A stretch of 34,109 bases of DNA from Nemertoderma westbladi (taxonomy: Eukaryota > Animalia > Xenacoelomorpha), in contig JAUCBJ010000513.1 in assembly GCA_032718475.1 (NCBI GenBank), forward strand, positions 1-34,109, given 5' to 3'. Position numbers and translations under genes: made by a program. Positions 5,163-34,109 of the stretch are shown here, one piece after another. Under the pieces are notes generated by a model, which did no database searches, had not been told where the DNA came from, and saw only the letters and a program-made list of their open reading frames with translations. Every line of letters starts with the position of its first letter. Positions within the stretch are counted from its first letter, which is position 1.

Positions 5163-5163
5163 A

Positions 5164-9539: not shown

Positions 9540-10708
9540 GCGGCGGGTGCACCGGGGGGAAGCAACGAAGGGAGTGCAGAGGATTCAAAATGGGCAATGT
9601 TGGCGGAGGGGTCACCGTTGCGGTCGGGAGGTAGTCAGTCAGTGGGGACTGAATTCCTGTTGCCGGATCAGTATTTGGGGGCTGACGATCCAGATTTTGT
9701 CTCTATTTGTAGTGTTAGGGGGCAGGACTTGGGTTTGTTAGGAAGCCTATATGTAGCCAGGGGAGGCCTTCGTGTTCTACACTGCTAACTGCTAATTGTA
9801 AATTGTTAATTGCATACTATACTGGTATACTGATACACTACTGTGTGGCTTTAGTGCACTAGCTGACTGGTAGTCAACGCAGTACTGTACTACTAGCTGA
9901 TTGCTATGCTAATTTCTGTGTTGCTAAAGTGTGCCTGATTCTTGATTATGAATGCTTAGTTAGGCGCCTTTCCCTTGATTGATTTCTATTTCTTAGTTTA
10001 CGTTTAATAATTGCTGATTAGGTCAAAATAATACAGTATTAAGGCTGTTGCTAGTGTAACCCAGTACGTAATAAATTAGAATTGCGTATTCTGGAACATT
10101 CAGTAATTAGTACGCTGTTCCCTATTTATGACTGTAATTAATTAGCGTTCAAATAAGAATTTGTACGGAGCATAGCGGAGAGTAGTTTAAGTAATTATTT
10201 AGAATACTGTAGACTATTCACGCTAGGTGGTTATTTGAAAATAGCGGGCAACAAGCTGATAGCAGCATCCTGTATACAGTAGTAGGTTGCTGGCTTAAAG
10301 CCAGCCGAAGGCAAGTTTAGACCCTAAATACAGTACCACGATTGGTCCCGGTAGGTCATTAAGTTATTTAAACATTCTCACATTCATCAATTCTGTTAGT
10401 GAATTCCAGTACTTGCGATAAGTGAACATGCTGAGTGTAAGCCACCCCCACACTCGTTTTAAGTAGCTTAGGCGAGCCGATTCGTGTTTATTGTTTTGGT
10501 TATTCCCGCGTGGCTCATAGATTCGAACAGTTAGCTCTCTGTCGAGCGATCGGTAGAGAAAGGAGCAAGCGATTTTGTAGGAGCCGTATAAAATTAGTAA
10601 AACAAATTAGCGGATGGCCAGGTTAGCGCCATCCAGCAGTGAGAAGCAATTTTGTGTTTAGCAGCAGTGCAGCAGTAATAACGCGCTCCTGATCGCGCTT
10701 GTTTAACA
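9540..10708 (+). repeat. 5' LTR
   Basis: Colinear with 24179..25338. Homology ends at GATCGCGCTTGTTTAA(CA). The left edge is fuzzy (about 9530-9550). Confidence 0.88.
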
Positions 10709-11678
10709 GTAGAACACGTGATATTTGCTGTTGCTTGCAACAGTAAAGAGTGTGTTCACTAATCGCAAAATACAGCAGTTCATTGGGCTGTTAGGGTAGT
10801 GTACTGTTTTTATTTACTGTTACTTCGTAATAGTAAAACACAATTTTTATTTTTTGCTGTACTACGTACAGTAAGATATAAGGAGTGCATTTACTAATCG
10901 TAATACAGTAATTCATTAGGCTGTTAGGGTAAATTGTAAATTAGTAAGTTTTGAAATTTTAGCTAGGTTTGTGAGAATTCAGTTTCGGTCAAAATTATTT
11001 TATAATATAATCCAGAGTTTTTGTACCGGTATGTTAGATAACCGCTTAGTTGTTTTATACCATCTGGAGATACATGGCGAGACGGAGCTTCTGAGTTTGG
11101 GGTTTGTGTGGGCCTGCGGGTTTGGTTTGCAATCAGCGACGAGACTGAAACTTTGGACGCGGATGTGGAATCTCACAGCAAACAAGGTTGGTTGTTCTGT
11201 TGGTACCATTGTATTTGTGGAAGCAGTAAAAAATTACCGGTTGTTTAACGGCGAAGCTGAACTTAATTTATTAGTTAGGATAGTTATAGGTTAAGCCGGT
11301 CATGGTATCCAGGTCGCAACCTGAAGGTGTAGCCACGCGCCAGTGGATATATATAATATTTAAAAATAAAATTACGTCGATTTTGAGCTATATATAAAAT
11401 TAGAAATATTTGGGTGACTGATTCATTTTTTTGAATTTTTTGAATTAGATTCAAAACTATTTTGTGTCATACCGGTATTTAAATGCTATATAATAGCTAT
11501 AGAGCAATATTTTCGTTTAAATGTCATACCGGTATTTACTATAACTATATACCATTAAATTCACAATATTATATTGCGAATTTATTTTGACATTTGAGAC
11601 CAAATTATTTGGTACATAATTTAATTGTATTTCGATTAAATTAATATATCTCGAATTTTTGCGAGATTTTAGCCGACT

Positions 11679-14600
11679 ATGAGTGTCTCAGAGAAGGAGG
11701 CACTAGAGGACAGTTATGAGACGGCGGCCGGACCACCGAATGATAACAGTATAGACATAACTGTTGATGACAATGCCGACTATGACGATGCAGCAAGTGA
11801 CGCTGACGTAAGTGAACAGGAGGACGAGACAGTAACCAGTGAGGAAGAACAAGGTGAGATAATACCTTTAGGATCCCCTACCACTACAGTAAGGAAGGAT
11901 TGCACAGCAGCCTGGCCAGAGGTGAGTGATAGGGAAGGAAGTGTAGCAGGAGCGAAAGCCCAGAGCCCGGTTTCCAGACCTGTGGGTATGGTAAGTGCCG
12001 TGGCCCCAGTGGATGTAAGAAGTACCCGTAGTTCCCGTAATAATCCCTCAAGTCCACCGAGTGTGAGTCAGGTAAGCGAGAGAGAGGTAGATATCAAGAT
12101 AAAGAAGAAACTTCGCGCGCATTCCAGACATATAACCTGGATGACAGACAAGGTAAGGAAGATGCTAGCCGACTCTGTTAACATCGGAAGAGAAGGGTTA
12201 GTAGAATTTAGAAAGGGATATAACTCAGCGTTGTTTAAGCAGATGGAGGAACTTGCAGTCCTAGCGAAGAGAGCAGTGGAGTCTCAGTTGAGTGATGTAG
12301 CGACTAGGGTTTATGACAGGGCTTTGGCGGCCTTGTTGGATCACCGCGCGTTATCGGAGCGATTCCGACGAGTTAGGACAGAAAACTGGTTGCTATGGGT
12401 GTCGCAAGCGCAGGCGACTCAGGTAAGTGACGCGGAGCTAAGGAACTTAGTGGGGCAGGAAGAGACCCAAGACAAGGAAGAGCAACGATACCAGAAGGAA
12501 GTCACCAGCTGGCTGATGCAGAGCAGAGTATTAGTACCGGGTCAGGTGTTACCGACGACGGAGAATATCCAGCAGAGGACGTTAACTCCACCCGACGACG
12601 CAGCCAGAAACAGTGGTGATTCTCAGGTTAGTCGTGCGCAAGGGAAGGTTATATGCGCTAGATCCCTAGTTTCTCACAACTCGGCAGAGGAGAGAAGACG
12701 ACAATTAGACGAACAACAGGCAGACGTTTTACGTGCGTCGGAGGCACGGAAGGAAGCCAAAAGAGAAAGGGAGCGCAAACGGAAGTTAGACGCAAAGCTG
12801 GGCGAGTTGGAGGACATAAGTAAGCGTGAGCAAGCCGAGTGCGAACACGAAGAACGCGAATTCTAACTCGAGCGCAAACATGAACAGAAGGAACTCTAAC
12901 TCGAGCGCGAATGCAAAGAGAAGGAACGCGAGCGCAAGAAGCGCAAACTCCAACACGAACGCGAATGGGAAGCCAAGGAACGCGAACAAAGGAGATGCGA
13001 ACTCGAGCGCGAGAAAGAGCGACGCGCACTATACGAAGAAAAGGAGTGACTGGAAGAAGAGAGCGCAGCGAGACTCGCGAGGGAAGAAGAACAATGCAAA
13101 CTGGCGCAATTGGAAAGTGCGAGACTAAACTTAGAGAGCAAAGAACGAACTAGGAAGGCGAATGAAATCGCCGAGAAGGGGATGCGAATGATTGAAGAAT
13201 GTGGGGCGAGTGTAGGTACCGAGTTGCGAGAACTGTTCGCACAGCAGAAGGCCAAACAGGAGGCGAGAACTCCAGTTATATGTAAGTCGACGGCGACCAG
13301 AATTCCTATACCCGGTCCAGCTATTATGAGTACTCGGATCGCTAAACCGTTTTCTACATATCGCACGCTGGTTGGCATTAGTGCTTCACCCATCGCGCAG
13401 GATCCGTGCCATCAGGACGGCGCACCGCGACGCAATTATTATTGGGACGAGAAGGAGTTTAGAGAAGAAACTCCTAGAGGCCGAGTATTGGGCGAACCGA
13501 AACCGCAAGTTTGGAATACGCGGATGGATCGCCGACCCAGTTCGACGGAGAACTTCCGGGTTAAAATGGAAGAGGGATCATATGAGAGACAGCGGATTAC
13601 ACAAATAGAGCCGAAAATTCAGCAGAACCCTAGCCAGGAGTTTATTACAAGGGAGGAGTTAGGTGCCAGTTTAGCGCAAGCTATATCGCCACACATCCAA
13701 CCTATAACGGACATGCTTAGTAACCTACAGTTAAAGGAAGCAGCACAGGTAAGAAGTAATTCTAATCCTAGCAGGCCTGAACTAGATAGAGTCCAACCTG
13801 GCCAACAAGTACGCATATCGGAGGCAACAATACCACAAGGACCTCAGGTAAGAACGCCCGTCCCTATGATCTATAATCCCGATTTCGAACACTCGGCGGA
13901 AAGGTTTATACAAGAAGCATCAGCACATGAACATTCGGCATGAACACTCGGCACATAAACCGACGCGAGCGCTGAGAACCGACACAGACTCGAGCGATGA
14001 ATAGGAAAAATGAGACGTCAGAAGTCCCAAAACCGGAAGGAAAGAAGGACCGACGCCGAGCAGGTAAGTATGAATCCCCGGGAAAGGACCAGACTTAACA
14101 ACCCTGCAGAACTAAACAATTTGTTAACCTGGAATGACGCAACCCTTAGAGACATAGGTAAGTTTGCCGCTGGGCAAGGACTGCCGACGCAACAACCCCA
14201 GAAGTTTATGGGCAACCATAGGCATTGGAGGACGTTTAAAACCTATGTCGACGAACAGCTGACCAACAGCACCTTTACTCCCAATGAGAAATTCAACTAT
14301 TTACTGCAAATTCTCCATCGAGAACCTATAGCCATTGCTGATAACTTCGTCAGCAATGAAAGAGTGTTTGAACTAGCTATGAAGACACTTAGTGACATCT
14401 ACGGGAATAAAACCAAGATGGCACAGTCGATAGTGGAAGACTTGGGTAAGGGCAGAAGGATTACGACCCCATTGGAGCTGTTGAACTTAGCGAACGCTAT
14501 TTCAAACGCATTGGACATCATAAGGATGGTAAATCAGCCTCATCATGGTGATCATGCCGAAGTTTTAAAGAGTATAATTAAGACTCTTAAATATGCATTA

Positions 14601-15224
14601 CCGACAGAAATGGTGCAAACTAGAAAATAAGTTAGAGGGTCAAGGTAAGGTGTTGACACTTCAACACATCCATGACATGATAGCCACAGATGCGGTAGCA
14701 GAGATGAAATCAAACTTCTCAGAGGAGAATATGAGAGAGTCTAAACCTGTTACCGGTAAGTCAATGGTAAGTTTTGACGATGACAGAACCACTGTAACTT
14801 TTAACTCAGTAGACAGATACAATTCGAGTACCCCTGCCTTTAGACCAGACTTGTGAGTATGGTCAGGTGAGAGGTCAGATAGACCTAAGGTGAAACAACA
14901 GGAGTTGCCGAATTCTGCCTACTAAAGGAGGTAAGATCGGACGACCATAAGTTAGACAGTTGCAGACGGTTCAAAGAATTAACTTCGGAACAGAGAAGGG
15001 TTCAAGTGCGGACGTTGGACACCTGTTGGGCATGTCTTGCACCAGGTCATATACGGCGCCAGTGCCCGAACAGCAAGGACAGATGCATGGAATGCGGCAG
15101 ACTACATCACAAGTTGCTACATGCAGACATCCATACCCCAACCCCTACAGAGGAATCCTCAAAGGAAGGGGAGCAGAGATCCCGTAACGATAAGAAGAAA
15201 TACGTACACTGGCATCCACGATGA
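11679..15224 (+). pseudogene. gag: BEL/Pao gag (coiled coil, DUF1759-like capsid region, Cys/His knuckles), disrupted
   Basis: E/R/K-rich coiled coil; PQKFMGNHRHWRTFKTYV..EKFNYLLQIL; knuckles CWACLAPGHIRRQC and CMECGRLHHKLLH. Several stops and frameshifts. Confidence 0.9.
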
Positions 15225-18200
15225 TGGATATCAACCAGGTTCGTCAGACAAGGATGGCGAAGCGAGCGCGAGAGAGGTGACCTGCCAAGGGTTCACCACG
15301 GATAGTTCATCGACCAGCGCGCGGACGTATTTATCATCAGCCACGTCAGAAATATTCAGCGTGATTCCGGTGAAACTTACTGGAGATAAGGGATCGAAGA
15401 GAATATATGTGATGTTGGACACTGCATCCACATTATCGTATATAGATGAGGAAGTGGCGAGAGCCGTTTCCAGCTTCCAGGACGCCGATGAAATAAAGAT
15501 AGAGTTAAAATCCATGCACGGGGTAGGTGACCTCAAGGGACATAAGATTTCGGTAGAACTAGACTCCCTACTCCCGGGAGACCAGCACACTCACCAAGAG
15601 CGGAGAGCGTTGCCATTGGATGGATTTAAGTGTCTAGCTATGAAAGGGTTCAGCAGGCAGTTAGGTAAGGTGCCACCGATGAGTCCCATAGCACAGGAGT
15701 ATTTTGACAAGCTCAGAATACCGAGACACCAGGTGGGTTATAGGAACGTATCTATGTTGATTGGAGCAGAACAGCTAATCGCGCACCAAATATGGGAAAC
15801 GAGACCAGCTGAGCTGTATGTAAATGGGCCACACGCCCATAGGACTATATTATGTTGGTATACACGAGTACCCATGTCCTATGAGTTTTCAGGCGGCGAC
15901 AAGCCAAAGGATAGACACGACGAATTACAGCCTATAACACAACAACCATTAGTAGAACCACCAGACATAGACGAGTTTAGGAGAACCTGTATTGACCACT
16001 ATAGCAACTTTAGCGAGTCAGACGAGGAGTTGATTCCCGATAATGTTAGATTGTCGGAACCACTCTACAATGACCGGACAGATACTGAACCCGAGGACTA
16101 CTGTTATCAGACCCGTGGGTCTGGTTCAGCTGCCCACGCCACTTATTTGAGTAACGTTTTGACTTATACCAATATAGTGGATGGTCAGGTGGCTAAATAT
16201 CGAGACCTCGACATTTTTCAATTCAGTAAGGAGGAGTTACAGAAGGAACTGATACGCCAGTACCTCGAGACAGGAGCTAAAACTGTCAAATGGCTGGACA
16301 GGGATGCGATGGAACCCGGTGGTTATGACCTAACCATGTCCACAGATGAGAAGCGGTCGCTAGAGATGATGGAAGATATCATACATCTGCTACCGACAGG
16401 ACATTTTGAAGTTGGAATGTTGTGGCGTCGACAACCCCTTAAGTTGGAGAACAACTACAACTTGGCCCTGAAAAGATTGAACGGAGTAAGGGCTCGGTTG
16501 CTAAAGAATCAAGACGCACAAATCAACAACTATTTCGTCAAGGGATTTGCTGGGAAGGTAGAGAACCCCGACTTAGTAACGGACCAGACTTATTACCTCC
16601 CACACCACTATGTGACTCACCCCGACAAACCAGACAAGGTTCGAGTAGTCAATGACTGCGCAGCAGGCTATAGAGGTATGTCCCTGAATTCAGAGTTGAT
16701 GGATGGTCCCAACCTAAATAACTACTTGATAGGGATACTATTACGCTTTAGACAGCGGCGATTTGCGTTTACTTGCGACATCGAGGCGATGTTTCACCAG
16801 GTAAGAGCCTGTAAGGCGGACCAAGATAGTCTCAGATTTCTCTGGTACGAGAATGAAGACCTATCCGGCCCAGTGATCACATACCAGATGTATGTTAGGA
16901 TATTCGGCGCCCGCGATAGTCCCAACGGCAAGCTGTTTGTCTTAAAGAAAATGGCAACGGCCCAGATTGGTAAGTATCCAGTAGATGTTATCGAGTCCAT
17001 CCTGAGAAACTTCTACATGGACGACGGATTGGTGTCCAAGGACACAGCGGAACAAGCCATAGAAGTGGCTCACGGCCTACAGGAGTGCTTGGCTATGGGA
17101 GGTTTCCCACTGACCAAGTTCACCACCAACTCGGAGGCCCTATTAGAGTCATTCCTGGTGTAAGATCGCGGGAGCGGAGACATTGAATTGGGTGTAGAAC
17201 CCATCCCCATGGCGTGAGTACTGGGACTCGCTTGGAATCCGAACACGGATAAGTTCCAGGTGAGAGTTAGGTTTGAACCTAGTAGCCCAGACAAAATTTT
17301 GACTAAGAGAATCTGCTTATTAACAATGAGTAGACTATTTGACCCGATGAACTTTATCAGCCCGGTAATATTACAGGCACGAGTATGTATGAGGAAAATT
17401 TGGCTGTCTGACCTAGAGTGGGACGAGCCAATATCCCCTATACATGCAAAGCAGTGGAGAGAGTGGGAAGCCGAGTTACATCTATTGAAAAATATAGATG
17501 TACCCCGCTCCTACTTTCCAAATCAGCTGGTATTTCCAGCTGATCTTGAACTGCACTTATTTAGTGACGCAAGTGACACCGGCTTTGGTATGGTAGCCTA
17601 CCTTCGCCGTGAGGTAAGTCAAGATAAGTTTGAGACGGCCTTTGTGAATTCTAGATCAAAGACAATGCCGGTCAAATACATGACTGTCCCTCATGCAGAG
17701 TTGCAGGCGGCAGTAGTCTCAGTCGAGGTAAGTAAGCAGATAATAGAGGAGTTGGACATGACATTGACATTATTCTATTGGACGGACGCATCCTTAGTGT
17801 TAGTGTATATTGCAGCTGACAATATTGCACTAAAGACATTTGTGGCCAACAGACGCGCTCAGGTCGTAGACTTTTCGACAAAGGAACAATGGAGACATTG
17901 TCCGGGAGTGTTAAACCCGGCCTACATAACTTCGAGAGGTGCTATGCCGGCGGAATTCTGTCAGGAGGAATCCCAGGAGTTTTGGTTACATGGACCTGAT
18001 TTTCTAACCAGGACACAGGAGCATTGGCCAGAGCGATTGAAGATTGTGACCAATCCGATGCCGAAGGATGCAGAAGTCAAAGTGGAGAAAGTCTCCAAGT
18101 CTAAGTCGAAAGCCAAACTCGAGTCATTGGAGCGGCCTGAAGAGTCATTGGAGCGGCCCGGAGACCTGTCAGACCAAGAGACGTACGTGACTATGAGGTC

Positions 18201-19925
18201 CGGAAGGGTAAGTTATGACATAAAACCACCCTTACAGACTACACAAGGGTCACGATTAGTAAGTGACGGACAGAAAATGACCGACAAAATGGAGCCTTCG
18301 GTTTCCATACCTGCGGGTTTGGATTCGAAACTTCCATTAGCCAGTGGGCAACCGTCGCTGGCATTAGAGCCATGTAGTATTTATGACAAATTACTAAATT
18401 CGTCCGCCTCTTGGCTGACAATTTGTAAAAGAACTGCGTGGTTAAGCCGATACGTTTCGTATCTTTGTTTAAAACATTCAGAACATTTAGGAGAACAAAC
18501 GAGCACTAATAGTGAGCGAATTCAAAAATTGAAACGACCTCTGACAGAGGATGAGATTGATCAAGCGGAATTAAAGCATTTGAGGCATTATCAAATGTGT
18601 GCCTTCCCAAAAGAATTCTATCTGTTATCGGCTCAACGACCAGTTCTCTATAAACCCCTCAAAAAATGGAGTCCATTAATCCATAAGGGTTTGATTTGTC
18701 ATAGATCGAGAATCCAGACTGTCGACATAAACTCACAGTTTAGGTTCCCAGTGATAATCCCTAGTCACCCAATAGAATTGCAAAGAGCGATTCTATGGGA
18801 TATACATAAGAGGCTGCATCACGCGGGAAGGTTACACTGTTTGTCGGCAGCGAGACAGCGATTCATTCTATTGCAGTTAAGCATAAGCAGGGCAGTAGGT
18901 ACTATGTACGACGCCTGTCTGGTTTGCAAGAGGGTGAACGCCAGAGTATTGGAACAGGAGATGGCTGAACTCCCGGAAGCGAGAGTGCAGGCATATGACC
19001 CACCCTTTACAAATATGTGGATGGACTGCTTTGGTCCAAATGATGCAAAGAGTGGACGGCTGACCCACAAGAGATGGGGCCTGCTACTGATATGTATGGC
19101 TAGTTGAGCCGTACACATAGAGCGTGTGGCAGATATGTCGACCAAATCTCTGCTCCTGGCCTTAAAGAGATTTGTGGCCAGGAAAGGACTAGTAAAGGCA
19201 TTCTACTCTGACAAGGGTACAAACTTTGTCGGGGGGAATAGCGAGTTAAACGCAGCTCATAGGGCGGCGCAGAATGGAGAAATCTCTGCAGCACTTTTGC
19301 CGCAAAGAGTGGAGTGGAAGTTTAACACTCCAGAAAGACCCTGGAGAGGAGGAAGTTGGGAGCGTTTGGTTCGCTCCATAAAACAGGCTATTGCTAAAAC
19401 ATTGCCTGTAAACAAACAACTTACAGACAACGAGCTGGTAACAGCTTTCATCAAAATCGAGCATACCTTAAACTCGAGGCTGATAGCTATGTTGCCTGAT
19501 GGTGTTGCATTAACGCCGAATCATTTGCTAATGCAGAGTCCAGCGTTTCTTGTGCCAGCATCAGAACCCAATAGTGCCGACCTATACAGTCGAAAGAGCT
19601 GGAAAATAACACAGTTCGTAGCGTACACATTCTGGGAATATTGGCGGGAATATTATCTTCCCACAATATCCACCAGATCTAAGTGGTACAAAACAGTTCA
19701 GAGCCTCCAAAGAGGAGACTACGTATTAATAACCGAACCAGTTGTCAGAGAAAATATTGGGAGACTGGAGTCATCTTGCACATACACCCGGACGTACAAA
19801 ATATAGTACGCACTGTCACTGTAAAAATAAGGTGCAAGTATCCAAACAAGAATAAGTATAAAACTAATGGTTTACACACACAGACTGGTCCAAGATATCG
19901 TGTTACTAGAGAAGACACGCATTGA
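15037..19925 (+). pseudogene. pol: BEL/Pao pol (aspartic protease, RT, RNase H, integrase), disrupted
   Basis: Protease MLDTAS. RT: YYLPHH, KVRVVND, DIEAMFHQV, LRFLW, NFYMDD. RNase H: LHLFSDAS, FYWTD. Integrase: HHAG..CLVC, MDCFGP, YSDKGTNF, GGSWERLVRSIK, FWEYWREYY. Stops at about 17161, 17215 and 19105, plus frameshifts. Confidence 0.96.
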
Positions 19926-20727
19926 GACAGGAGACTATAATTTATCTTCTGCCTCAAACCAAAATTAGTGTTAGAATGCAAATTCACTTCGTATACATTC
20001 CTCGTATGCAAATACTCGGAAATGCATAGGAGCGGGTTTGTGGTGATTTGTGTTGAGAATTTGTCTGGTGGGTATCAAAACAAAATTTTATTTTCATAAA
20101 ATGTTTGGAAAATTAAAAAATTTTAAAATTATATGTTGAACCCAAGACAATTCCAAACGCTGCATATAGACGCGTTCTAGAATTCGTCTATAGATGTACA
20201 GTAATTTGAAAGTCGTGAAGCCTGGAAAATAGTATCTAGACACCATGGTTACGGCTATATTAAGTAGGAGTGTAAATTGAGTTCAGTAACTTCCACAGAT
20301 TGGTGCCAACAGTACAACAACCAAGGTGCTAAAGGTTAGTAGCACCAGAGGCGTACACAGACCCCACTCAGTAGTTTGCAGTGGAGTGAGGTGTTCGATT
20401 ATCAAACCTGCGGGTTTGGTATAGTCGAACGCCATAACTATTATCCTTTCTAACTACTGTAGTCTACTACAAGTATTGGGGAGTAGCTTGGGCATCAAAA
20501 AGTGAGTCGGTCATGGCCAGTTTATCTCCGAAGTTTTTGTGCTATGCATGGGAATAGGTTAGAAGGTAGTTAGGAATGAGACGGGATCTAGAAACCTGAA
20601 CCTGAACTGCTGGAAGGCGGCCGGGTAGCTCGGGAAGTTCGTCCCTCCGCATCATCTAGCTGACTTACCCACAGTGTAATTAGTTACGTAACGGACCTAA
20701 TTGGGATAAATATATATACTTGGCAAT

Positions 20728-23700
20728 ATGGAAAAGGAGATTCGAGCACAACCGAGGAGAGGTTTCACCGCCAGAGAGGAAGCGGAACTACGGTTCGCCC
20801 GACCTGGGTGTAAAGATTCCAATGTTTACTACCATGGGAGATCGGTAATGGAGTTGAATGGGAAGTGTAACCCCACGTACGAGAAGGAGTTGAGGAGGGA
20901 ACGGATGCGAGCGTTGGGAGACCGCATGGAGGTTCTACGAAAGGAATATCGCACTCGTTATCCCTACGACTTTGCCCTTGATGTGTGCAACATTAGCGCC
21001 GGCCCTGATGAGGAAATCACCTGTCTATATCATATGAACATGTATTTACGGCACGATGAACCGCTACCTGCAGTCCGAGATCAATTCAACGGGATGCATC
21101 TTTACCGGAGGACCCGAGGCGAGGATCCTGAGACGCCAAAGGTTTTCAGTGTATACAAGTTGTTCTAAAAATGCGGCGAATGCATGAATAAGCAAGATGT
21201 AGCAATTCCCGATCGACTGAATGAGCAGAATCCTGAACCGATATTAACGTGATGTCAAGCTCATCAGTTTCTTAGATATAACGAGGGAGGTTACCCGATG
21301 AGCAACCCGATGATCAGTATCGACTGTAACAGAAAGAGACCTCCGAGACCCATTACGCCGACCGTTATGACTTTAGATCTGTATACGGAGATTAAACCCT
21401 GTTCGACACCCGCCTTGATAGAAACGGCGGCGGCCATTTCGCTTTACCGAGCCTATAAAGACCTAGAGGCGCGGCGCGAAGCGGCACGGGACTCAAGTAC
21501 CAAACCCGGGGGTTTGGAACTCTCGAGTCCCTGGACCACATTTACTTCGCCTCACCGAGGGAGAAAGCTCACGCCTGAGCATCAGGACGATATAGACACG
21601 TTGCAGCAGGAGGAGCGAGTGGCGAAAGCGAAGCAGTTATTCGAAGAGCATATAGCGGAGTACAACAAGACTGCGGATAGACATCAGGAGGAAACTAGGA
21701 GAGTGACTGGATTTGTTCCACAGGCTGTATCTCAACCCCGACTGGTGTATTATTCCGACGGCAACGGACCTGCAATATTGGTAGATCACCCGGAGTCGCG
21801 AGAAGCCATTCGATTCTTGCCGATGGTGACATTGTCGGATCATTGGAACGTTGACTGCTTACAGGAAGTTTTATGCGCGAAGTTCTTGCGTGACGTCCCG
21901 ATGCAAATAACGGATTATGATACGTTAGACAAGATCGGAGCTCCGGGGAAGGAGAGTAAGTTATTCGGTTGGTTGGACAAGTATATAAAGGAATGGGTCG
22001 CGGTGGCTACGTTCCCAGACGACCAGGAGGTATATCAGGTGTGGCTGAGGAGGAAGGGTTCCTATACCCAATATGATGACCATAAGGCTATCGAGCGCAT
22101 ATGGACCCCATCCGACGACATCCAGCGTCAATGGAGGAAGACGGAGGAATCCCTAGAGGATTGGCATGTAATGTTCTATGACAACGAGGGAGGGTCCCAC
22201 CAAGAGTGCCTAACTAGCAAGTGCATTCAAATTCGCGTGGCTGATGGCATGACTCACGTATTTATGCGCGTGAGGGCGGACTGAGAGAGACTGGAGCCCA
22301 TCATAACGACGCAATACCGGCGAGGGAAGGATCCTAGGGAGCAGATCTTGGAGGTATGTAGGCGAGGGGGTATGCATGGAGCGGAGCGTATCGACGCCAG
22401 GATGTTACCCAAGAAGGTTAGAGAGGCGATTCTTAACCAGGATTACGTAAAGGTGGGATCAGGAGTCCAAAGTGATTTGGAGAGCGACTTCAACGCCATG
22501 GCGGATTTGGAGGATCGATTGCCGAGACCGTTTGTCGACACCAAGCTATTATTGCTATGGGCACAGGATATTGGAATTTATAGGGAGTACCCAAACTCTG
22601 CTAAGACTGGTATGGGCTTTATAGCGCATTTGTTGTACAACTGGGACTTCAAGTTGAAGACGCAAAAGAAATATGAGAAGGCGTACGGTGAATATAACAC
22701 GCCGCCGCGAGCGGAGTTCAAATCCCACTTTAAGTGGCAAGCGTTAGTATTGGAACATCTGCGCGCCACCCCGTGCGTTGCTGCAATATTATTTGGTACT
22801 AGAGTCGAACACGGTAACTTGTTTAGTGGCAAATATCATTGCGCGAGTTCTGAAGCGTCATCCATTGGTGTTCGGAGGAGATCAATACGTTCGTTCGAAA
22901 GGAGGAATCCAATCTGACGTGATGAAGCGTTTCTTAACCCCGTTCTTCAACCAATCGCTACAAAACACGTCGAAGGTTTGCCGTTGGTGAAACGAGACTG
23001 ACCATTCATTCCATACGTGCACCGTCTTCATTTCTCAGTGTGGATATTGTGGGGTAAAGGGACACCGTAGTGCAAAGTGTCAACTGTGTGATGATTCCTT
23101 CCAGAATCATAGCGCCGAACCTCCTTCGGGGGATGTTAGACAAGTGGGAGGGTGTGGCTGACTACCACATCCAGGCGCAAATGCGGTGGTTGTCGTTTAA
23201 AGCAGGATACAGGTTCTGGGCGGTAGATCCATCACACGTTGCCTACAAACCGTATTTGCAATCCCTACCACAATACCAGGAGCTAATACTGACTGCTCAA
23301 GACCTTCCGCAGAATACAGGAGTTATAGTCGTTAGATCATATTTTCGACAGTTAAACATGGACAATAAGTATACCTGGAATTTCGTTGCTATTTGCGACA
23401 GAATAACCAGAGGTTTATTTTCAGAGACGAGAAAGGTGCGCGAGGAGACTGGAGGATGGCGGCTATACAATACCGCAACGAATTCTTGTTGACTCACATA
23501 CGGGTGGGGTCATTGACCGCCGAACGGGTGGAGGTGCAACGAACCGCGGCGCCCACAGCGACAACAGCCGGAGCTCACAGCTCGCAGCAAGTACCAGAAG
23601 GAGGAGTCCTAGACAAGCGTCAAGTTAAGGACGAGCAGTTTCACTCTATTATCGACACACAACGACTGCAACGGAAGGCACAAGGCGCGTCTGAAAGGGC

Positions 23701-23944
23701 GCGCTTGCAATTGCAGAAGGAGGAGTTGGCAGCAGAGGCGCCCGCAGGGACACGGCAAATGGGACGAGGCCGAGGGAGAAGCACCAGTCAAGAGATAGTC
23801 GGTGCTCAGGGAACGTCGTCGCCGGTTCCGGGAAGTGACGCCCCACGGACGCCGTCAACCGAGTCTACAAGAGGAAGATTAGTGTATCTGGGGAGGGGGC
23901 GAAAGAGAGGAACGAGCCCGAAGGACCCAGGAGCAAGCCGATAA
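20728..23944 (+). pseudogene. Extra ORF: RNase D/WRN-like DEDDy-type 3'-5' exonuclease with CCHC knuckles, disrupted (about 1050 aa)
   Basis: ExoI FYDNEG (22180) then CIQI. ExoII MLPKKVREAILNQDYVKVGSGVQSD (D at 22474), then FVDT. ExoIII-like LLQYYLVLE (22790-22804). Knuckle CGYCGVKGHRSAKC near 23040. Colinear homology with 28327..32388. Confidence 0.8.
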
Positions 23945-24178
23945 TGCGATAATATCATGGAGCGACAGACTCTAGACATATACATCATCATCACTCTGAT
24001 GTATATCGTAGGTTTTGATAAAACAATCGACTGGACTCGTATACACTAGTCGTATTCATATATTCTAGAATTTTAGCGAATATTAGCAGAGAGAGGCGAA
24101 GGAGGTGACTGGGGAGACAAACCCGCGGGTTTGGCTTACTCCTTTCACCTGCCCTAGCCAGGCGGCTGGCTGGTGGCT

Positions 24179-25338
24179 GCGGCGGGCTTCCCACCGCACC
24201 GGTGGGAAGCGACGAAGGGATTCAAAATGGGCAACGTTGGCGGGGGGTCACCGTTGCGGTCGGGAGGTAGTCAGTGGGGACTGAAGACCTGTCGCCGGTA
24301 CAGTGTTAGGGGGCTGACGATCCAGATTTTGTCTCTATTTGTAGTGTTAGGGGGCAGGACTTGGGTTAGTTAAGAAGCCTATATGTAGCTGGGGGAGGCC
24401 TTCGTGTTCTACACTGCTAACTGCTAATTGTAAATTGTTAATTGCATACTATACTGGTATACTGATACGCTACTGTGTGGCTTTAGTGCACTAGCTGACT
24501 GGTAGTCAACGCAGTACCGTACTACTAGCTGATTGCTACGCTAATTTGTGTGTTGCTAAAATGTGCCTGATTCTTGATTGTGAATGCTCAGATAGGCGCC
24601 TTTCCCTTGATTGATTTCTATTTCTTAGTTTAAGTTTAATAATTGCTGATTAGGTCAAAATAATACAGTATTTAGGCTGTTGCTAGTGTAACCCAGTATG
24701 TAATAAATTAGAATTGCGTATTCTGGAACATTTAGTAATTAGTACGCTGTTCCGTATTTATGACTGTAATTAATTAGCATTAAAATAAGAATTTGTACGC
24801 AGCATAGCGGAGAGTAGTTTAAGTAATTATTTAGAATACTGTAGACTATTAATGCTAGGCGGTTATTTGAAAATAGCGGGCAACAAGCTGATAGCAGCAT
24901 CCAGTATACAGTAGTAGGTTGTTGGCTTAAAGCCAGCCAAAGGCAAGGTTAGACCCTAAATACAGTACCACGATTGGTCCCGGTAGGTCATTAAGTTATT
25001 TAAACATTCTCACATTCATCAATTCTGTTAGTGAATTCCAGTATTTGCGATAAGTGAACACGCTGAGTGTACACCACCCCACACTCGTTTTAAGTAGCTT
25101 AGGGAGCCGATTCGGGTTTATTGTTTTGGTTATTCCCACGTGGTTCATAGATTAGAACAGTTAGCTCTCTGTCGAGCGATCGGTAGAGAAAGGAGCAAGC
25201 GATTTTGTAGGAGCTGTATAAAATTAGTAACACATATTAGCGGACGGCCAGGTTAGCGCCATCCAGCGGTGAGAAGTAATTTTGTGTTTAGCAGCAGTAC
25301 AGCAGTAATAACACGCTCCTGATCGCGCTTGTTTAATA
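24179..25338 (+). repeat. 3' LTR
   Basis: High-identity copy of the 5' LTR with scattered transitions and small indels. It ends GTTTAATA, versus GTTTAACA in the 5' copy. Confidence 0.88.
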
Positions 25339-25340
25339 AA

Positions 25341-27017
25341 GTGGGAGAAGAAGAACTAATGAGAAGACTTCGTGGCCATCCCCCATCAAGTCCCACAACT
25401 ATAAGGATCCTAAAGGATATCGATGAGGAATGTCAACGTAGATCGATTGTGGACCGGAAGCTAGAGTAAAATAAAGGTAAATTAAAACAACTACAGGATC
25501 AGGCAGAGGATGAACGCTTACAATGTGAATACGAAGCTGAGGAAGCGGAGGAACGAAAACGCGAACTGGATGCGGAGAAACGAAAACGCGAACTGGAAGC
25601 GGATAAACAAAAACGCGAACTGGAAGCGGAGAAACAAAAACGCGAACTGGAAGCGGAGAAACAAAAACGAGAACGGAAGCGGAGGAACAAAAACGCAAAC
25701 TGGAAATGGAGGAACGCAAAAAACAGTTTCAGGCGGAACAAAAAAGAAAGCAGAATGAGAGGGAGCAAGAGAGCATATTGAGAGAGATCGAATCAATAGA
25801 AAAACAACAGTCCGACTCCCAATCAAAGGAAAACAGGACCAAACTCGATTGCTATACCTCCTCCGACGAGTTCGATAAATTATCAGACAAATCTCGAAGT
25901 TCTAGAAGTGGACGACTTAGAACGGGCTGAACGTCATCGCCTCGCCTGCCAGAACTGCCACCCCAACACCCTGCTAACTCCGTTAAAAACACCAACGATC
26001 TTAGAACTGACTCCGACTCGGATTTTTTCAGACCAATGAACACCCCTCTTGCGGCGCCAAATATTGTTCCCTGTATATTAATAAACCCCTCTAAGACGAA
26101 TGTAACATCTGCGGCTATGGCGACCCAAACAAAATGTACACCAATTGGTATTACGACAACTACTGTAGAAAGTAACCCAACTGATAGTTTACAGCCCAAA
26201 ACTTCTACAGTATATAGGGATAGAATAGTTACGCCTACAGTAAGACCTAAGCAGGCGCGACCAATCCCAGTACTGGCAGACAGAATGTCCAGTACTGCCT
26301 TCGCCCACCCATTAAACACTCACACCCTGGTCTTAGTCTGTCCCCCATCATCGACTCCCGTGATGGACCATTATGCCGCCTCCAGGCTGGTCGTGTCTGT
26401 CGGCTCGGTTGAGTTGATGGGGGATGCGGGACCCATTGGGGCGAAAGAGAGAGTCGCCCGGGTGAATGAGGATTCCCTCTATAGGGAAAGAATAAATGAA
26501 TACTCATTAAATCTGCAAAAGTAAATAATAAAATAAAACAATTAAATAATATCGATTTTGAATTAAATCTATTAAATAAACAACGAGAGATAGTGAGTGA
26601 ACAAAATCAGCAAGCACTGGAAAAGCAGCAACAGCAGCGGCAACAACTACAGCAGCACTTAAAGCAGTTGCATGACAAAGCCGCTAACAGCGAGCAGATC
26701 CAATGTAGACGTTTGCAGGAGCTGCGAGGTGAATCTGTACAAGCCGCCAAGGTTCTAGAGGAGCTACAACAAAAGCTGGCTAATTCTCAAGACCTCCTAG
26801 CCTCAAACAACGCTGCCATGATGAGGAACCCGGACTCTCCTGAATATCAGATCCTAAAGAGAGCCTCTAATATAAACGGCGTTGAAGCTGAAAATATGTC
26901 ACGCTCTCCTATCTCACCCAATGTTAGAAACCCTGAGTACAACACAAGTACACAAAATGACACACAAAATATTAACAACCATTATAGACCCCCCCCCCCC
27001 CCCCCCCTCCAGACTGA
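25341..27017 (+). pseudogene. Decayed gag-like coiled-coil ORF of another retroelement
   Basis: Frameshifted reading frames with EAEKQKREL repeats, a P/T-rich linker and a Q-rich coiled coil, similar in composition to the gag at 12700-13900. Confidence 0.5.
25542..25702 (+). repeat. 27-bp coding minisatellite, 6 units (EAEKQKREL)
   Basis: GAAGCGGAGAAACAAAAACGCGAACTG units. The fifth unit lacks one base, causing a frameshift. Confidence 0.93.
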
Positions 27018-28326
27018 TGTAGGCCCATGTGATAACTCTACATATGTTTGCGCTTTTAGACCTTTAGCAGTTTAACCCGCTAATTTTAGGTGTCTTTTAG
27101 TTTGTAAATCGACTTTAGCCTATGACTAGTATTTGATACAAATAAACACTACATTAGCCAAAGCCAGCCTATGCGCGACCATTCACCCGCTGGATTTACC
27201 CGGGAGACTGGATTTGGAAGCTCTGACCTTATTGCGGTGTAGGCCTACTGTACTATTCGATTGATCGGTAATATATATAATCTCTGACAAATATTATTCA
27301 CTTTCGGGAAATACTAACAGTTCCTTTAGGACGTGGCGCTCTAAATATGTAAACAGAGTTATGACTTATACTAAACACAACGGGATGGCTTATGATTCAC
27401 ATATAAGGCGCATTCTTTAGGAGATGCTTTGTTATCAGTCACACTCATGCCCACCACCGCACAATACTGCCCACTGATCTGCCGACCGTCACTGAATTTG
27501 ATCATACATAAAGAGAATAACAACTGACACCTGTAGTGCCTATGAAATAGCATTAGATTCACTCCAAAACCAATATAATGTAAGTCGAAATTGCTATATG
27601 TAACCGGTCTCTTACCTTCAGTATATCAAGAAGATGGGGGTTTTATGATTATTTATCGATATTATCCAAATATAACATTATTCCATCAACTGATACAATT
27701 AATAACCGACAGTAAAATAGCAGTAAAATAAAGCGGTGAAAGGTATGCACAGTATGATATAGGCTGTTGTGAGTTGATATGACTTGTATGAGATTTGAGT
27801 TAAGTAAGATAACAGTTATACGTTTCTATATTCAAAGCCGTTCTAATGTTTGGCTAAAGTCTGAAACACAGAATAATTCCACAGCCGATGTTCTGGCATC
27901 AGGAAAAAAGGTAAACATAGACCATAATGTATTGCGCAATTTCCCGGAGGCTTCTGTGCAAATAAAATGAAAATCGCTCTGATTGGCTGAGCCGAACAAA
28001 GAAAGCTCCACGAGTACAGTAAATCAGCTGATAGATGTTGTAATCTGAACTACACTGTATTAAGAGTATTTTGACGCATTGCGACATAAAATCGCTAGTT
28101 ATGTCTGCTAAAGCACACATACAGAAAAATGGCTTTTTATGTCCACTAAAACACCAGTACAGTAAAGAAATGGCTTTTTACGTACGCTAAAACACCTACA
28201 GAGTACTTTGCGGGGAAAATGACTAGCTATATCCGCAAAAGCTTTTACACCGCTCCCAGAAAATGGGATTTAATTCTATAAAATATAAAAAATCACAGTT
28301 TCTAAAATATAAAATATTCTAAACAG

Positions 28327-31300
28327 TTAGTCTTTTTTGCGCGGACGGCGTTTACGCAGTTTTTTGAGGCTAGCAAGAGTCCTTTTCTCTTTGGGGCGAG
28401 CCACTTTACTAGGAGGGCTATAACTTCTGGGTGAAGGGTGCAATACGATTGCATCAGAAGGTTTAGGATTACGGTCGGTGTATCCGCCGGTCGAGGTACC
28501 TGGTTGATCTATATCAACTTCAGTGGAGCGAGGTCTAACAGCCTTTAGAGTGTGTCTTAGGACCGCAGCTCCTACTGGTCCCTGACGAGTCGTCTGGACA
28601 ATAGTGGTAGGTGGACCGCGAGTGGTAAGAAACTTCCTCGGTTTAATGGTTCTTTCCAGCTCGCTTTCTCAGGCTCGATATTCGTAGGGCCGTCGATGTA
28701 CTTCCTGTAACTCAGGGTGCGAGTTGATGAACAAATCGCCATACTCGGGGTCTTGACGGACGGAATTAATCAAATTGTATGAATTAATATTGTTAGGATT
28801 GATGTTCCTGAGATATTTACGAACAAATTTGGTGGAAACACACTCACCTATACGCTTCATTAGTTCGTAACTCGGTGTGCGCGATTTTTGTTCAACAGAT
28901 GCGAATAGATAAGGATGGAACGCGTAAACTCCTTCGTAGGCTCGTCCAGGGTAATAGCGATGGCGTGACTCACAATGTAAATCCGCATTCGCTTCCCAAG
29001 CTCGGATGTAGCGCAGGGTAATCATCTCATCTAGGCTTTCCAGATCGCGGTTAAAAGGGCAATCAAAACTGGCATGTCCTTTAAGTTGACAATGATGGCA
29101 TTGAGTCATAAATTGGGGGCAGATTGCGAAAATATGCGAGTTATTGAGTCTGCAATACGCACAATAGATCTCCATCATCGGTTGTTCATGGAAATAGGAG
29201 CAGGGTATGTCTGAGTCCATAGGTGTGAAATGATCTCTCGAGGCGCATAATCGGCAACGTTTTCGAGAAACATAGTTGGCGTGCCGATAATCGTATGCGG
29301 TGAGACATTGTGGACCTTGATACCATTCCAAGACGTAGTCGTTATCGCTGCTCCTGGGCGCTGTGGGATGAATCTCCTCAGATTCTAAGCATATTGGTTC
29401 GTCTTCCAATTGCATAGCTGAGGTAGGAGCGGATGTCTCCGCAAGCAAACCCACTGTCTGAATTTCCACGACAGAATAACCCGTGGGTATTCGAGGTCTT
29501 TGTATAACAGATGAATGTAAGTTCTGTATACAAACGTCCTTGAAAAGGGCGAATCCCGCGCTGTCTAACTTCTCCGCAGCTGAGTCTCTTAGGCTGAGCT
29601 TAGTCAGAGCGCGGTCCTTGAACTGACTATCAACGTTACGGAACGGAGTCAGAAAGCGCCTGAAACATTCAAAGCGGATGAATTTATTGTGTTCATCTAG
29701 CTTGGCGAGTTTGGTTCCAAGTATTAAGGGATGGGCGCGTATGGTACGACTGCACACATCGGCTAGCCAACCGGCAATTGCGGCGTTTTCAAAGATCGTG
29801 TATATAGCTAAGGAGGGACGAAGTGGAATGCTCATAAAGCCATACACGGCGCCAGGTGCGGTCAATGGTCCATCAAAGTATAATCGAGAATAATGATCTC
29901 CATATACTTGTTGGTAGTTGATAGGATTTCCAACCTTGAAATTCCATCCATATTCTTGAAAGGCAAGATGTCCTATGGAGGTTCGTTGTACTTTAGTGAT
30001 GCCGCTGGGTGTATTTGCATACATAGTGCGGAAGAAACCTCAGCCTTCTGCCCAGGGAGCAATCAGCTGAGTATCGACAAAAGGGTATGGAATGTTCTCC
30101 ATTTTCCGAAAGTCGTTTTGGAGATCTCCATAAACAGCTGAGCCGATTTTAAGGATTCTTTCGTTAAATAACATCTCAAGCACGGGCTGGGGTAACATCG
30201 ATCCATCGATACCCATGGCCGGTTTGCGCTCGGTGTCGGTGACGTAACGCTGCGCGAGTTCGAATTGTCCATGTTTCTTTTGTATCTCGGTACGGGTCTC
30301 AAAAGAATAATCAATCACATCAGAACACGCTCGAGTAAATACGTGGGTAGAACCAGCTAGTCCTCGTATATGTATCATGCGCGTAGTTCCCAGTTCTCCA
30401 ACCGGAACGCTACCTTCGTTATCGTAAGTGACAATTCCATACATCTCGATAACATTAAGAGTCTCATTCCACTCTTTAGTGGCGTTTTCTAGAGTCATTC
30501 CCACTGGATGCCACAAGGTAGCGCTTTTGCTAGCATTAGGTAGATCTCTATACTTTAAGTATTGTGTAGTATATGTTTCCACATCTCCATATCGTTGTAT
30601 TCTTTCCTCCTCGAACAACACGTCGAGATTCCAGTGGACGTATTGTCTCTTTCTCTATTCTGGAAACATTATAGGGTTTTCGAAATGAGTTTACTTTCAC
30701 TAACTGATCCAAATATTTCTGTAGTTGTTCGAGTTCGACAAGATCGAGAGGATTTATTAGTGGTAGAAACTTCAGACTATGTGTAGGATCTTCAGGTTTT
30801 ACCATGTAATATTGCGTTAGATTGACATAATAAGGATGATCTTTAATCCCATAAAACGATTTCGGTAAAGGTCTAGCGTGTATGTTAACCTCGTGTACCA
30901 TACGACGGACAAGATCCGCTCTATTGTCCGGAGGTTCAACAAGTATACCATCGACACGAGCAGCCTCGATTGGCGGACTTTGCAACATGGGAGCGTCAGC
31001 GATAAGATTTTGAGATCTTAGGTTGATATCCACCGGTTGAGGCTGTGTCGTGGTGAAGAGTTTGTCTCCGAAATGGGGAACCATCAAAGGATGGATGATG
31101 GTTTTAGAATAGAGATCCGTCATAAGGATTTGAGCTTCTAGCTGGGCTAAAGCTGCTTATTCTCTCTCATCCATTTCTATGTGTTTCTCTTCGAGCTGAT
31201 TTTCCTCCGCTTGTTGTTGTAAACGCTCATCTAGAAACTCTTGTAGAGAATAGGTTCATCCACGTTCGATGTCTTCCTCGAGATTCTGGATTTCTTTATC

Positions 31301-32388
31301 GAACTGGGGTAAAGCTAATTCTTTCACCGCTTGGACTTGTTGCTGCAATTTGCGTTTCTCTAAACAATCATAAGTTCCTTTTCCGATCTTCTGCCGAATA
31401 GCGTCTAACATGTTTCGTACAACGCTCTCTTTGACGTCGGTAACGGGTTGGATTGGGGTTAAGCCTGGACGGTTATATGGGTTAAACGGCGATATTAGAT
31501 GACCGCGTCCTAATTCGGCTAGGTAGGGTTGGTGAATATCTAGTGAGCCCACTACCGGAGTGCCGCCGATTAATTGTTCGGGTAACACAAGATCTTTAAA
31601 CAGTGAGTACAGTTCAGGGGGATCCGTTATACTATTAGGATCAAGCGTTTGAGGTCTCACTAAGGAATGAGGAGGTCTGACCGAGTATTCCGGAACTCTG
31701 ATCATTGGTTTATTTAAGGATTGTTTGAGCCGAGCGAGCGTAGGTGATACATCAAACAGGTTTCGCTCGAAACTCCCATAAGTATATCGTGTAAAACTGT
31801 GTTTAGCGCAACGTCTCCGCGAATGTTTAGGTCTTTCCGTTTGCTGATTTGGTCTAGGGCATTCGTCGCAGTAATACCAAAGACGCACGTCCTGCGTCGC
31901 GGAAACGCGGGTGATCGTTCTCCAGTTTTACAATATTCCTCCATCTGTTCGAAGCTAGGTAGCGGTCGATCGGCGGTAAGATACATCATAGTGAAATAGA
32001 GCCGTTTGAGTTCTATCATAGGGTCATGATGTATACCTTGAGGATATCAAGTTTCTAGATTTTGTTGACTGGCAATATTGAGATATGTTTCTCTCAGGAA
32101 TTCCAGATAATCGTTGAAGTTGCTGCGTTTATCCGGCTCTTCAACGTCTTCTCTTTTGAGTCTGTTTCGAATAGAATTCTCGTGTTCTATTCTCGGTTTA
32201 TCGTTACGACTCTGCTGGGTATGATATTTAAATAAAACCATTTCCCTTTCGGTGTCTACATTGTCCGTATCGTGTAAATCGATAGGATGGCCAGTAGTTA
32301 AGAAGTCCATATACGTACCATTACGATGCGTATAGCGAGCGGTGAATTTTCTATAGTCCAATTCACGCGTAAGTTGCTCCTGGGACAT
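28327..32388 (-). pseudogene. Second, diverged homolog of the exonuclease/CCHC extra ORF (about 1300 aa, disrupted)
   Basis: ExoI TYDNEG (30423). ExoII MLPQPVLEMLFNERILKIGSAVYGD, then FVDT. ExoIII-like LAIYTIFE. Three Cys/His clusters. The frame continues past the TGA at 28669 to a TAA at 28327, ending LKKLRKRRPRKKD. Confidence 0.8.
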
Positions 32389-34109
32389 TGGCGGTTCGAT
32401 ATAACAACCATCGTCCTCCGTAGTAGTTAGTCAGTACCTTCCAGAATGCCACGTTATTATTAATTATATGATGTTGACAACCACGACTTTAGAGGGATTG
32501 TAATATTAATATTAAAACAATAAAATAGGACATTATTTTCGTTATTATTATGTATCCTTGGATACTAGCAGTGTGCTATTTATTCCCTATGCTATTCAAT
32601 GGGGCAAGCTTTCTATTGTTCTTTTTACTCACTTCTAATTCTAGCGTGGTTGTTGCTATGGTGACATTATGGAAAGCTAGCAGTAGAATTAGGGTAATTC
32701 TCATGCATACAGATCTGGGATGCTATTTAATAGTAATTCTTTAATTGTCAATATCCCCTTTATACATGATTTGGTAAATTTTATCGGCTATTGACTATAT
32801 ATTGGAGATTCTCGCACACTAATACACTTAATAGGGTGAATCTCCGCTCCCATGATCTATTAATTAATAGAATTTTGGGAACATTATAAATTGTATAAAA
32901 TGACAATTTATCAAATTCATTAAAAGAGATGAATTAGAATTTATTCCCGTAAATTTTATTATTTAATATTAAAATAGACACAATTTTATTCCAGAACATG
33001 TCTGGGGACGTTAACCACTGATTCTAGAATTTTGTCTTTCAAGTATATCGGTGGGTGCCGCGATATCTTAATCGACTAGAATTACAGATGGTCAAAGTGT
33101 TTAACAGATTTATTTTGCGTTTTACGCTACTGTTAAAGGGACATCACGCTACTATATGTATTATTTAATATACGGTATGAGAGCAATATCGCACGAAGCA
33201 ATGTCAGTGTGAAGAGGCAAGTCGTTTCCAAGGTCTACCCAGAGCTTGGTTTCGCCGAGACACGAGGATCTGAACTTTGCATTCCTAATACTCTGCTTAC
33301 CAATAATACTGGAATATAGTAGGAGCTTTATTGTACTTTAATAAGTACGGATATTTCATCTTACTGTAGTCACGTATTTATAATATGATACGGACAGTAA
33401 GGAAAGAGAAAAAGAATTATTTCTCGCCGTCGCACTAAATATATAATATACATAATTAAGTAATAAGACTAATATATTGCACTAATCTACTAAATAATCG
33501 CTAAAATAACACTATTTAAATAACTTGCGATATTTCCAAAGCTAGCCTTTTAAGTTTTAGCAATGGTGTGGACCAAGTATGTTGTATGTACTTAACATAT
33601 CTTTAAGTGCAACTACGTAGTTCTACAAAGTATAACAAGTTTAATGCATATACTTTGAAAGCTTAGAAAGTTTCTAGCAAGGGCTTTGAATGTATTTATA
33701 TGTACAACTACTTAGCTTTAGAGGGTATAACAAGTTTTAAAGAGGCACTTAGAAAGATTAGTACGCCTCAACCATGTAATTTGAAAATATAAAATTGTAT
33801 TGACTTCGGAATATAATATGGTGACTGTACGGGTGTTATATTCTTCCAATTTTTAATGAAACATCAAGATGAATCTAATTTTTGTTTAAGGGCATTGTAT
33901 AAGTGTCATACTTTAATGTAAGTGAGATACTCAAATATTGTCATCTTTTTTTTATACGTTTTATTATATTTTTGTTATTTATTATTTGTGATATACCGAT
34001 CTAGCACTTTATATGATACCAGGTCGATTCGCTTTAAGGCGGTATAGAGACGAGTAACTCCCCGTAAAAGGTGCCTAGGGGGCGTTCATAAATTATGTCA
34101 CACACAGGG

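Follow-up and report, generated by a model that had tools for sequence, protein, structure and literature searches.

A predicted RNase D/EXD-type exonuclease with zinc knuckles, encoded in the env position of a BEL/Pao retrotransposon of Nemertoderma westbladi

What does an extra gene encode that stands in the env position of a retrotransposon, between integrase and the 3′ long terminal repeat (LTR), and what could its product do? This question is raised by a stretch of 34,109 nucleotides of Nemertoderma westbladi DNA (assembly GCA_032718475.1, contig JAUCBJ010000513.1, forward strand), which was analysed at its full length and is called the window below. On its plus strand, the window contains a BEL/Pao LTR retrotransposon with such a gene, here named ORF3 (open reading frame 3). 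From sequence comparison and from the model of a homologue, its central domain is predicted to be a DnaQ-fold exonuclease of RNase D/EXD type, in a DEDE-y variant that lacks the canonical fourth residue of DEDDy enzymes. By analogy with known enzymes, we propose, with a probability of roughly 0.55, that the ORF3 protein is an RNA-trimming accessory factor, in which an RNase D/EXD-type 3′-5′ exonuclease joined to CCHC zinc knuckles would act on the ends of the element's RNA or on host small RNAs.

Layout, fold and active site of ORF3

ORF3 runs on the sense strand from an ATG at 20728 to a stop at 23944, between the end of integrase (19806) and the polypurine tract and LTR (~24106). A first-pass annotation of this DNA had reported a sense ORF of about 3.2 kb between integrase and the 3′ LTR; the position and the coding region stand, but the window copy is not a single open frame, as it is interrupted by at least four stops and by three changes of frame. 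Stops lie in the main frame at 21166, 21250 and 22282 and inside the first knuckle at 22988; the reading shifts to another frame close to 22700-22745, 23090-23140 and 23390-23490. The parts of ORF3, and a second homologue on the opposite strand of the window, are as follows; P0003 and P0004 are homologues found by database search.

20728-22098, plus strand: N-terminal part, of no known family, with two in-frame stops
22099-22963, plus strand: predicted DnaQ-fold RNase D/EXD-type exonuclease domain and the helices after it, with one stop and one frame change inside
22979-23080, plus strand: pair of CCHC zinc knuckles, with a stop inside the first
23112-23387, plus strand: conserved, unnamed post-knuckle domain, common to the minus-strand copy, P0003 and P0004
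23369-23944, plus strand: low-complexity, mildly basic tail, which probably belongs to the gene
28327-32430, minus strand: second ORF3 homologue, colinear, ~1370 codons, broken, with N-terminal part, exonuclease, three knuckles (the first degenerate), post-knuckle domain and basic tail

The tandem knuckles that had been annotated are present, and resemble those of nucleocapsid, Lin28 and Air2 (E 1e-4 to 2e-3). The basic tail likewise exists, but its charge is modest (K+R = 23% of the last 40 residues). Since the ORF3 pieces contain no hydrophobic or transmembrane-like segment (19-residue hydropathy, KD19, at most 1.37) and the predicted fold is that of an exonuclease, ORF3 is not an env gene. 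In two-sequence comparisons, the minus-strand copy and ORF3 share 31% identity over 212 residues of the exonuclease (E 7e-25), and are also similar in the helical part (E 1e-5), the knuckles (7e-5), the post-knuckle domain (0.002) and, weakly, the N-terminal region (0.004; 20920-21141 in ORF3). The two copies have ~30% protein identity and no DNA similarity.

Both database homologues are unnamed singletons. P0003 is an uninterrupted protein of 648 residues with the exonuclease, three knuckles and the post-knuckle domain. P0004 (contig L002, 124-2022) has a degenerate exonuclease and a duplicated module of knuckles and post-knuckle domain, with a spacing of 585 bases; its contig (3.7 kb) has no pol in the 1.6 kb downstream, and only 123 bases upstream. 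Word-based protein searches found no relative among 633 long candidates, P0003 alone among 7989 and none among 3417. Viral-contig scans and a first metagenome scan gave no relative, and a second metagenome scan only L002.

The exonuclease assignment depends on these homologues, because the ORF3 copy alone gives no Pfam match and only 11% profile probability: none of five ORF3 pieces matches a Pfam exonuclease family, nor does a read-through piece. We aligned the domains of the ORF3 copy, the minus-strand copy and P0003, and compared this alignment, using HHalign, with a reference profile of 11 RNase D/PolA exonuclease domains (one from E. coli and 10 of 40 listed plasmid matches). The result was a probability of 95.7% and a score of 60.1, with the ExoI, ExoII and ExoIII motifs in register, while 100 column shuffles scored 12.4 +/- 2.2 (maximum 21.0) and the reversed control 17.4. 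The ORF3 copy alone scored 25.6, compared with 12.9 +/- 2.7 (maximum 20.4) in 30 shuffles. The minus-strand copy alone reached 22% and 29.3 (shuffle maximum 28.2), both window copies together 65.9% and 37.3 (maximum 16.9 in 30 shuffles), and P0003 alone 89%. In addition, the minus-strand copy matches NCBIfam rnd at E 0.0045, and in the E. coli chromosome the family exonuclease profile matches rnd alone (E 0.45). A search of the PDB with this profile returned RNase D at E 2.2 only, ranked under chance transferrin matches, and a single-sequence PDB search gave nothing useful.

The P0003 exonuclease domain was modelled with AlphaFold2, using the two window copies as alignment rows. The predicted local distance difference test (pLDDT) is ~75 over residues 1-123; from the single sequence it was 33. 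The top Foldseek matches of the model are EXD2 (E 2.4e-6), Egalitarian, RNase D and trypanosome RNase D (E 1.2e-4); RICE1, Exd1, NrnC, Pol I, Nibbler and Rrp6 are also among the matches listed, and the viral matches are 3′-5′ exonucleases of giant viruses and phages. Structural alignment with VIA-align gave Z 11.1 for RNase D (root-mean-square deviation, rmsd, 4.1; 166 residues aligned), 10.4 for Nibbler (rmsd 4.2; 176 aligned) and 10.3 for trypanosome RNase D (rmsd 4.0; 169 aligned). Values across the superfamily range from 11.9 to 9.4 with no clear best subfamily, and the fold search favours neither Nibbler/Mut-7 nor EXD1 over RNase D, EXD2, NrnC-like proteins or Rrp6. On the DnaQ-like fold, which had been set beforehand as one of two tests of the annotation (the other being whether ORF3 is a one-off insertion), the profile-profile match, the homologue's model and the fold searches thus agree.

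The motifs named in the first-pass annotation can be located in the window copy. ExoI D-x-E (D 22180, E 22186) and the ExoII aspartate (D 22474, in an LP..KVGS....D block) are invariant in all three alignment rows, in the register of RNase D. The ExoIII-like block is present as well (Y 22790), but its acid is a glutamate (E 22802) and not an aspartate: ORF3, the minus-strand copy and P0003 all have Y-x3-E, aligned with Y-x3-D of RNase D. Three of the four family proteins, at 23-31% identity, retain D, E, D, Y and the fourth acid.

The BEL/Pao element and the spread of ORF3 in the genome

The element that carries ORF3 (~9.5-25.3 kb, plus strand) belongs to an abundant family of BEL/Pao LTR retrotransposons and is present here as a decayed copy. 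Its other parts, and the repeat that contains the second homologue, are:

9549-10708, plus strand: 5′ LTR, ending in CA; the initial ~90 bases of the 3′ copy are absent
11680-15224, plus strand: broken gag region with coiled-coil repeats, DUF1759 and CCHC knuckles
14983-19806, plus strand: stop-interrupted pol with protease (LDTA at 15415), reverse transcriptase (RT; YMDD at 17014), Pao RNase H and integrase
19807-20727, plus strand: non-coding spacer of 921 bases, covered by other copies as deeply as ORF3
24085-24105, plus strand: polypurine tract, read from the sequence
24106-25338, plus strand: 3′ LTR, beginning with TG; depth drops past ~25.3 kb
27080-33511, minus strand: separate, very deeply covered repeat with the second homologue, cut at 33511; position of the left edge approximate, from binned depth

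The BEL/Pao identity given in the first-pass annotation holds. Pfam matches are DUF1759 (2.4e-8) in a gag that also has CCHC knuckles, Peptidase_A17 (8.4e-38) and DUF5641 (4.3e-9), and the pol domains follow the Pao-type order of protease, then RT, then RNase H and finally integrase, with a Peptidase_A17 region and a DUF5641 integrase tail. The direct repeats (9549-10706 and 24196-25336) have 94% identity (Kimura two-parameter distance 0.048 over 1141 sites, i.e. LTRs 4.8% diverged); two direct LTRs of the form TG...CA are present along with a polypurine tract, the 3′ copy ending in TA. By eye, no TGG-type primer-binding site directly follows the 5′ LTR, whose start is missing, and a transfer RNA search of the DNA found none. 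Rfam gave no ribozyme or other family at the element, only two chance-level microRNA matches on a minisatellite, and a hammerhead-core pattern search gave one loose match. Over 11680-33511, in both elements, the CpG observed/expected ratio is 0.77-1.18, which gives little indication of decay through CpG methylation.

To see ORF3 in other copies, we used contigs from three public DNA runs (two samples, two studies) that align to 9000-26000 at a likeness cut-off of 85%. Contigs of diverged copies cover all 30 bins of this interval in each run, and short diverged contigs bridge the integrase end and the spacer (19597-19845), the spacer and the start of ORF3 (20667-21000), and the ORF3 tail and the 3′ flank (23596-23989, 23741-23982). 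Among the 15 joints listed, out of 124, none skips ORF3. ORF3 is therefore a real accessory gene at the level of the family and not a one-off insertion, an outcome that the second homologue in the window bears out. At the gag, pol and minus-strand stops among the 40 rows listed, out of ~1160, every aligned contig differs from the window, so these breaks are private to the window copies; the stops of ORF3 itself lie outside the 40 rows.

The minus-strand repeat (~27.1-33.5 kb) is covered several times deeper than the BEL element, with a summed contig depth, which is no copy number, of 3e4 to 1.3e6 that falls sharply to 68-219 beyond 33512. Its ends are deeper than its middle, and a joint that skips 28489-31174 occurs in all three runs, which suggests that internally deleted derivatives exist. 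No pol, LTR pair or terminal inverted repeats were found in the window copy. A complete element without pol was considered and is not established, since other copies continue past 33511; what the window holds may be only the 3′ portion of something longer, and it is somewhat doubtful that the family truly lacks pol. Between the 3′ LTR and this repeat lies a gag-like coiled-coil repeat region (25340-27075), which adjoins the LTR, belongs to a lower-depth family and is cut by the minus-strand repeat.

These data also bear on whether ORF3 does anything for its carrier, as it could be a neutral passenger, i.e. a fragment of a host exonuclease that was captured once and is decaying. The window copy is indeed broken, depth over ORF3 is under that over pol, and the ORF3s of bdelloid rotifer elements show no clear departure from neutrality (PMC5408684). 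However, pol and gag are broken too, both ORF3 copies belong to high-depth repeat families, and two colinear copies without DNA similarity have kept the catalytic positions. We consider a passenger very improbable.

Candidate roles and the spaced stem-loops

If the ORF3 protein trims RNA, the knuckles would grip single-stranded RNA and pass its 3′ end into a two-metal site. This scheme is modelled on trypanosome RNase D, which has a similar two-part design and in which the zinc-finger domain provides RNA binding and increases cleavage (PMC7797062). Possible substrates are the RNA ends of the element itself and small RNAs of the host that target it, and trimming them would help the element to persist. 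The first-pass annotation had proposed a candidate anti-silencing or RNA/cDNA end-processing factor, a role that stays hypothetical here. That a second repeat, which has no DNA in common with the element, retains the same gene leads us to prefer a role in trans, acting on RNA, to a step within the particle.

Several observations weigh against this proposal. The structural model is that of a homologue, and its mean pLDDT is 57.5, with residues 124-228, including ExoIII, below 50. Catalysis may be weakened by the glutamate that replaces aspartate as the fourth acid in each of the three aligned proteins, and P0004, although it retains two knuckle modules, has no ExoI glutamate. A search of 1.84 billion representatives with the minus-strand copy yielded just two proteins at E up to 0.001, P0003 and P0004, neither with a known link to pol. 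No single contig reaches from pol to the LTR or spans the element, and ORF3 has a summed depth, again not a copy number, of 8-27 thousand compared with 35-74 thousand for pol (a fraction between about 1/7 and 2/3); some BEL relatives may lack ORF3, or their ORF3 may have diverged beyond the 85% cut-off. Finally, relatives that act on RNA and on DNA tie in Z (diDNase 11.9, PolI 10.6 and 9.8, WRN 9.5).

This tie would also suit an alternative, in which ORF3 is a DNA 3′-5′ exonuclease that would trim or proofread the ends of complementary DNA in the particle before integration. EXD2, too, is among the DNA-acting DEDDy domains that score level with RNA-acting ones, tblastn with P0003 gave weak matches to family A polymerases of phages (E 5-10), and CCHC knuckles bind single-stranded DNA as well as RNA. 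However, BEL/Pao elements to our knowledge generally replicate without an exonuclease gene, and the same gene is found in a second repeat whose window copy has no pol. Moreover, the solved protein that combines such an exonuclease with knuckles works on RNA (PMC7797062). A role on DNA therefore seems improbable to us, and RNA trimming remains the preferred reading.

A further feature of the element is a spaced stem-loop. An 18-base near-palindrome occurs in seven copies (at most 4 mismatches) inside the BEL element and in none outside it; the expected number is 0.01 (0.18 with a looser pattern). As the pattern was derived from the copies themselves, these expectations lean in its favour. An eighth site with a compensated closing pair was also found. 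The sites are:

11974-11991, plus strand: stem-loop copy 1, in gag
13497-13514, plus strand: degenerate copy, in gag
14845-14862, plus strand: copy with compensated closing pair
16107-16124, plus strand: copy in the protease-RT interval, with a compensated stem pair
18305-18322, plus strand: copy in the RNase H-integrase interval, long lower stem, z -3.8
20402-20419, plus strand: spacer copy with a long lower stem, z -6.1
21500-21517, plus strand: copy within ORF3, long lower stem, z -2.8
24117-24134, plus strand: copy where the 3′ LTR begins, with a long lower stem, z -2.6

The 5′ leader (11109-11126) holds a half copy, which folds into no hairpin. Gaps between the eight sites are 1.1-2.6 kb, more even than random (coefficient of variation 0.30, P 0.003). 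Since the copies occupy different codon phases, the motif is not a protein motif. In the seven aligned good copies, 89% of cells pair, and three of the eight stem pairs have two-sided changes; compared with shuffles, this covariation is weak (25/500 for two-sided pairs, 66/500 for the score). Four copies sit on long lower stems whose sequences are unrelated (z -2.6 to -6.1), whereas for five of nine stretches folded around the sites z is -1.4 at best. Where copies deviate from the perfect palindrome, 10 changes are C-to-T and 1 is G-to-A, at least one C-to-T being private to the window copy; this excess of C-to-T fits pairing in RNA, with G-U allowed.

The stem-loops could be the ligand of ORF3 itself. 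ORF3 would then be a non-catalytic RNA adaptor, like Egalitarian or EXD1, whose fold and knuckles bind the spaced stem-loops and so mark the RNA for transport, protection or packaging. The confinement of the motif to the element, its even spacing, its two-sided changes and its C-to-T departures, which suit G-U pairing in an element without CpG depletion, are consistent with this idea. All seven loops read N-G-N-G, and a GGAG tetraloop is the target of the nucleocapsid knuckles of human immunodeficiency virus (PMC7599994). The top fold matches include Egalitarian, whose exonuclease fold binds stem-loops with the catalytic residues unused, ~15 Å from the RNA (PMC13186709). The ExoIII glutamate and the loss of the ExoI glutamate in P0004 point in the same direction. 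On the other hand, the minus-strand repeat encodes an ORF3 homologue but has no copy of the stem-loop, and a 14-mer scan found no dispersed motif proper to that repeat, so the stem-loop motif is tied to the BEL element and not necessarily to ORF3. Gag, which has knuckles of its own, would be a simpler reader, and the palindrome could equally be a DNA-binding site. Given also the weak covariation, the poorly folding stretches and the private C-to-T change, we regard an adaptor as unlikely, although it is the chief rival, and retain RNA trimming as the preferred role.

A more far-reaching scenario combines these elements. A mobile nuclease-knuckle module, swapped between unrelated elements, would read a spaced stem-loop code and shield retrotransposon RNA from small-RNA silencing, and would be valuable enough to persist as the sole gene of a very abundant element without pol. 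We offer this as speculation that is probably wrong.

The remainder of the window holds other repeats and frames. An element at 3-5379 is bounded by inverted repeats of 216 bases (99.5% matched) and has internal tandem repeats and two ORFs, one with C2H2 zinc fingers (2567-3427) and one weakly similar to TBP (3448-3963, Pfam E 0.003); no transposase was seen in it. It is followed by an uninterrupted tyrosine recombinase frame of 318 codons on the minus strand (5508-6464, Phage_integrase E 2.5e-7), which we take to be of the kind found in DIRS- or Crypton-type elements. A 153-codon open frame (8073-8534) lies upstream of the 5′ LTR.

Comparison with known systems

The precedent of RNase D-like cargo in bdelloid rotifers, to which the first-pass annotation had referred, is real (PMC5408684). 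There, DEDDy ORF3s occur in the LTR elements Juno and Vesta and are shared with Athena/Terminon retroelements (PMC5408684; PMC6431247; PMC5718144). As in Juno and Vesta, the gene described here places an RNase D-like DEDDy domain after pol, in the env position, without a transmembrane segment, and as in Juno, Vesta and Athena, one type of ORF is common to unrelated elements of one genome. However, the rotifer elements are gypsy-like and the present one is BEL/Pao. The ORF3s here have ~1070-1370 codons, two or three CCHC knuckles and a post-knuckle domain, whereas a Cys-His-Cys motif is described for two rotifer ORFs, and the motif is D-E-D-E here and 'DEED' in the rotifer proteins, as compared by description. 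Our literature search, which did not extend to older work on nematode elements, found only the rotifer studies: no exonuclease cargo in BEL/Pao elements and no knuckle-fused case. Nematode elements, also named in the first-pass annotation, are a further putative precedent for such cargo.

Among cellular proteins, Trypanosoma brucei RNase D (TbRND; PDB 7c42) has the most similar design, a DEDDy exonuclease followed by tandem zinc fingers (E 1.2e-4, Z 10.3; PMC7797062). It differs in being a mitochondrial trimmer of guide RNAs with four fingers and canonical acids, at ~20% identity in the structural alignment, and the fusion of exonuclease and zinc fingers probably arose independently in TbRND and ORF3. 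The animal proteins EXD2 (first by Foldseek), Nibbler/Mut-7, EXD1, Egalitarian and the WRN exonuclease have the same fold (Z 9.4-10.4), but with identities of 11-20% no single donor can be named. We know of no animal EXD-family protein that carries the module of knuckles and post-knuckle domain.

New here are the colinear homologue in a second abundant repeat of one genome and the seven to eight spaced stem-loops; neither these nor the ExoIII glutamate had appeared in the first-pass annotation. The role of extra ORF3 enzymes in retrotransposons has been described as an open question (PMC5408684), and the present family offers a testable case, with a nuclease-plus-knuckle design that has a solved cellular analogue, an unusual fourth residue, an uninterrupted protein (P0003) and a candidate stem-loop ligand. 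If confirmed, it would be a new mechanism for a retrotransposon protein of an animal to trim small RNAs of the host or to read its own RNA through a dispersed structural code.

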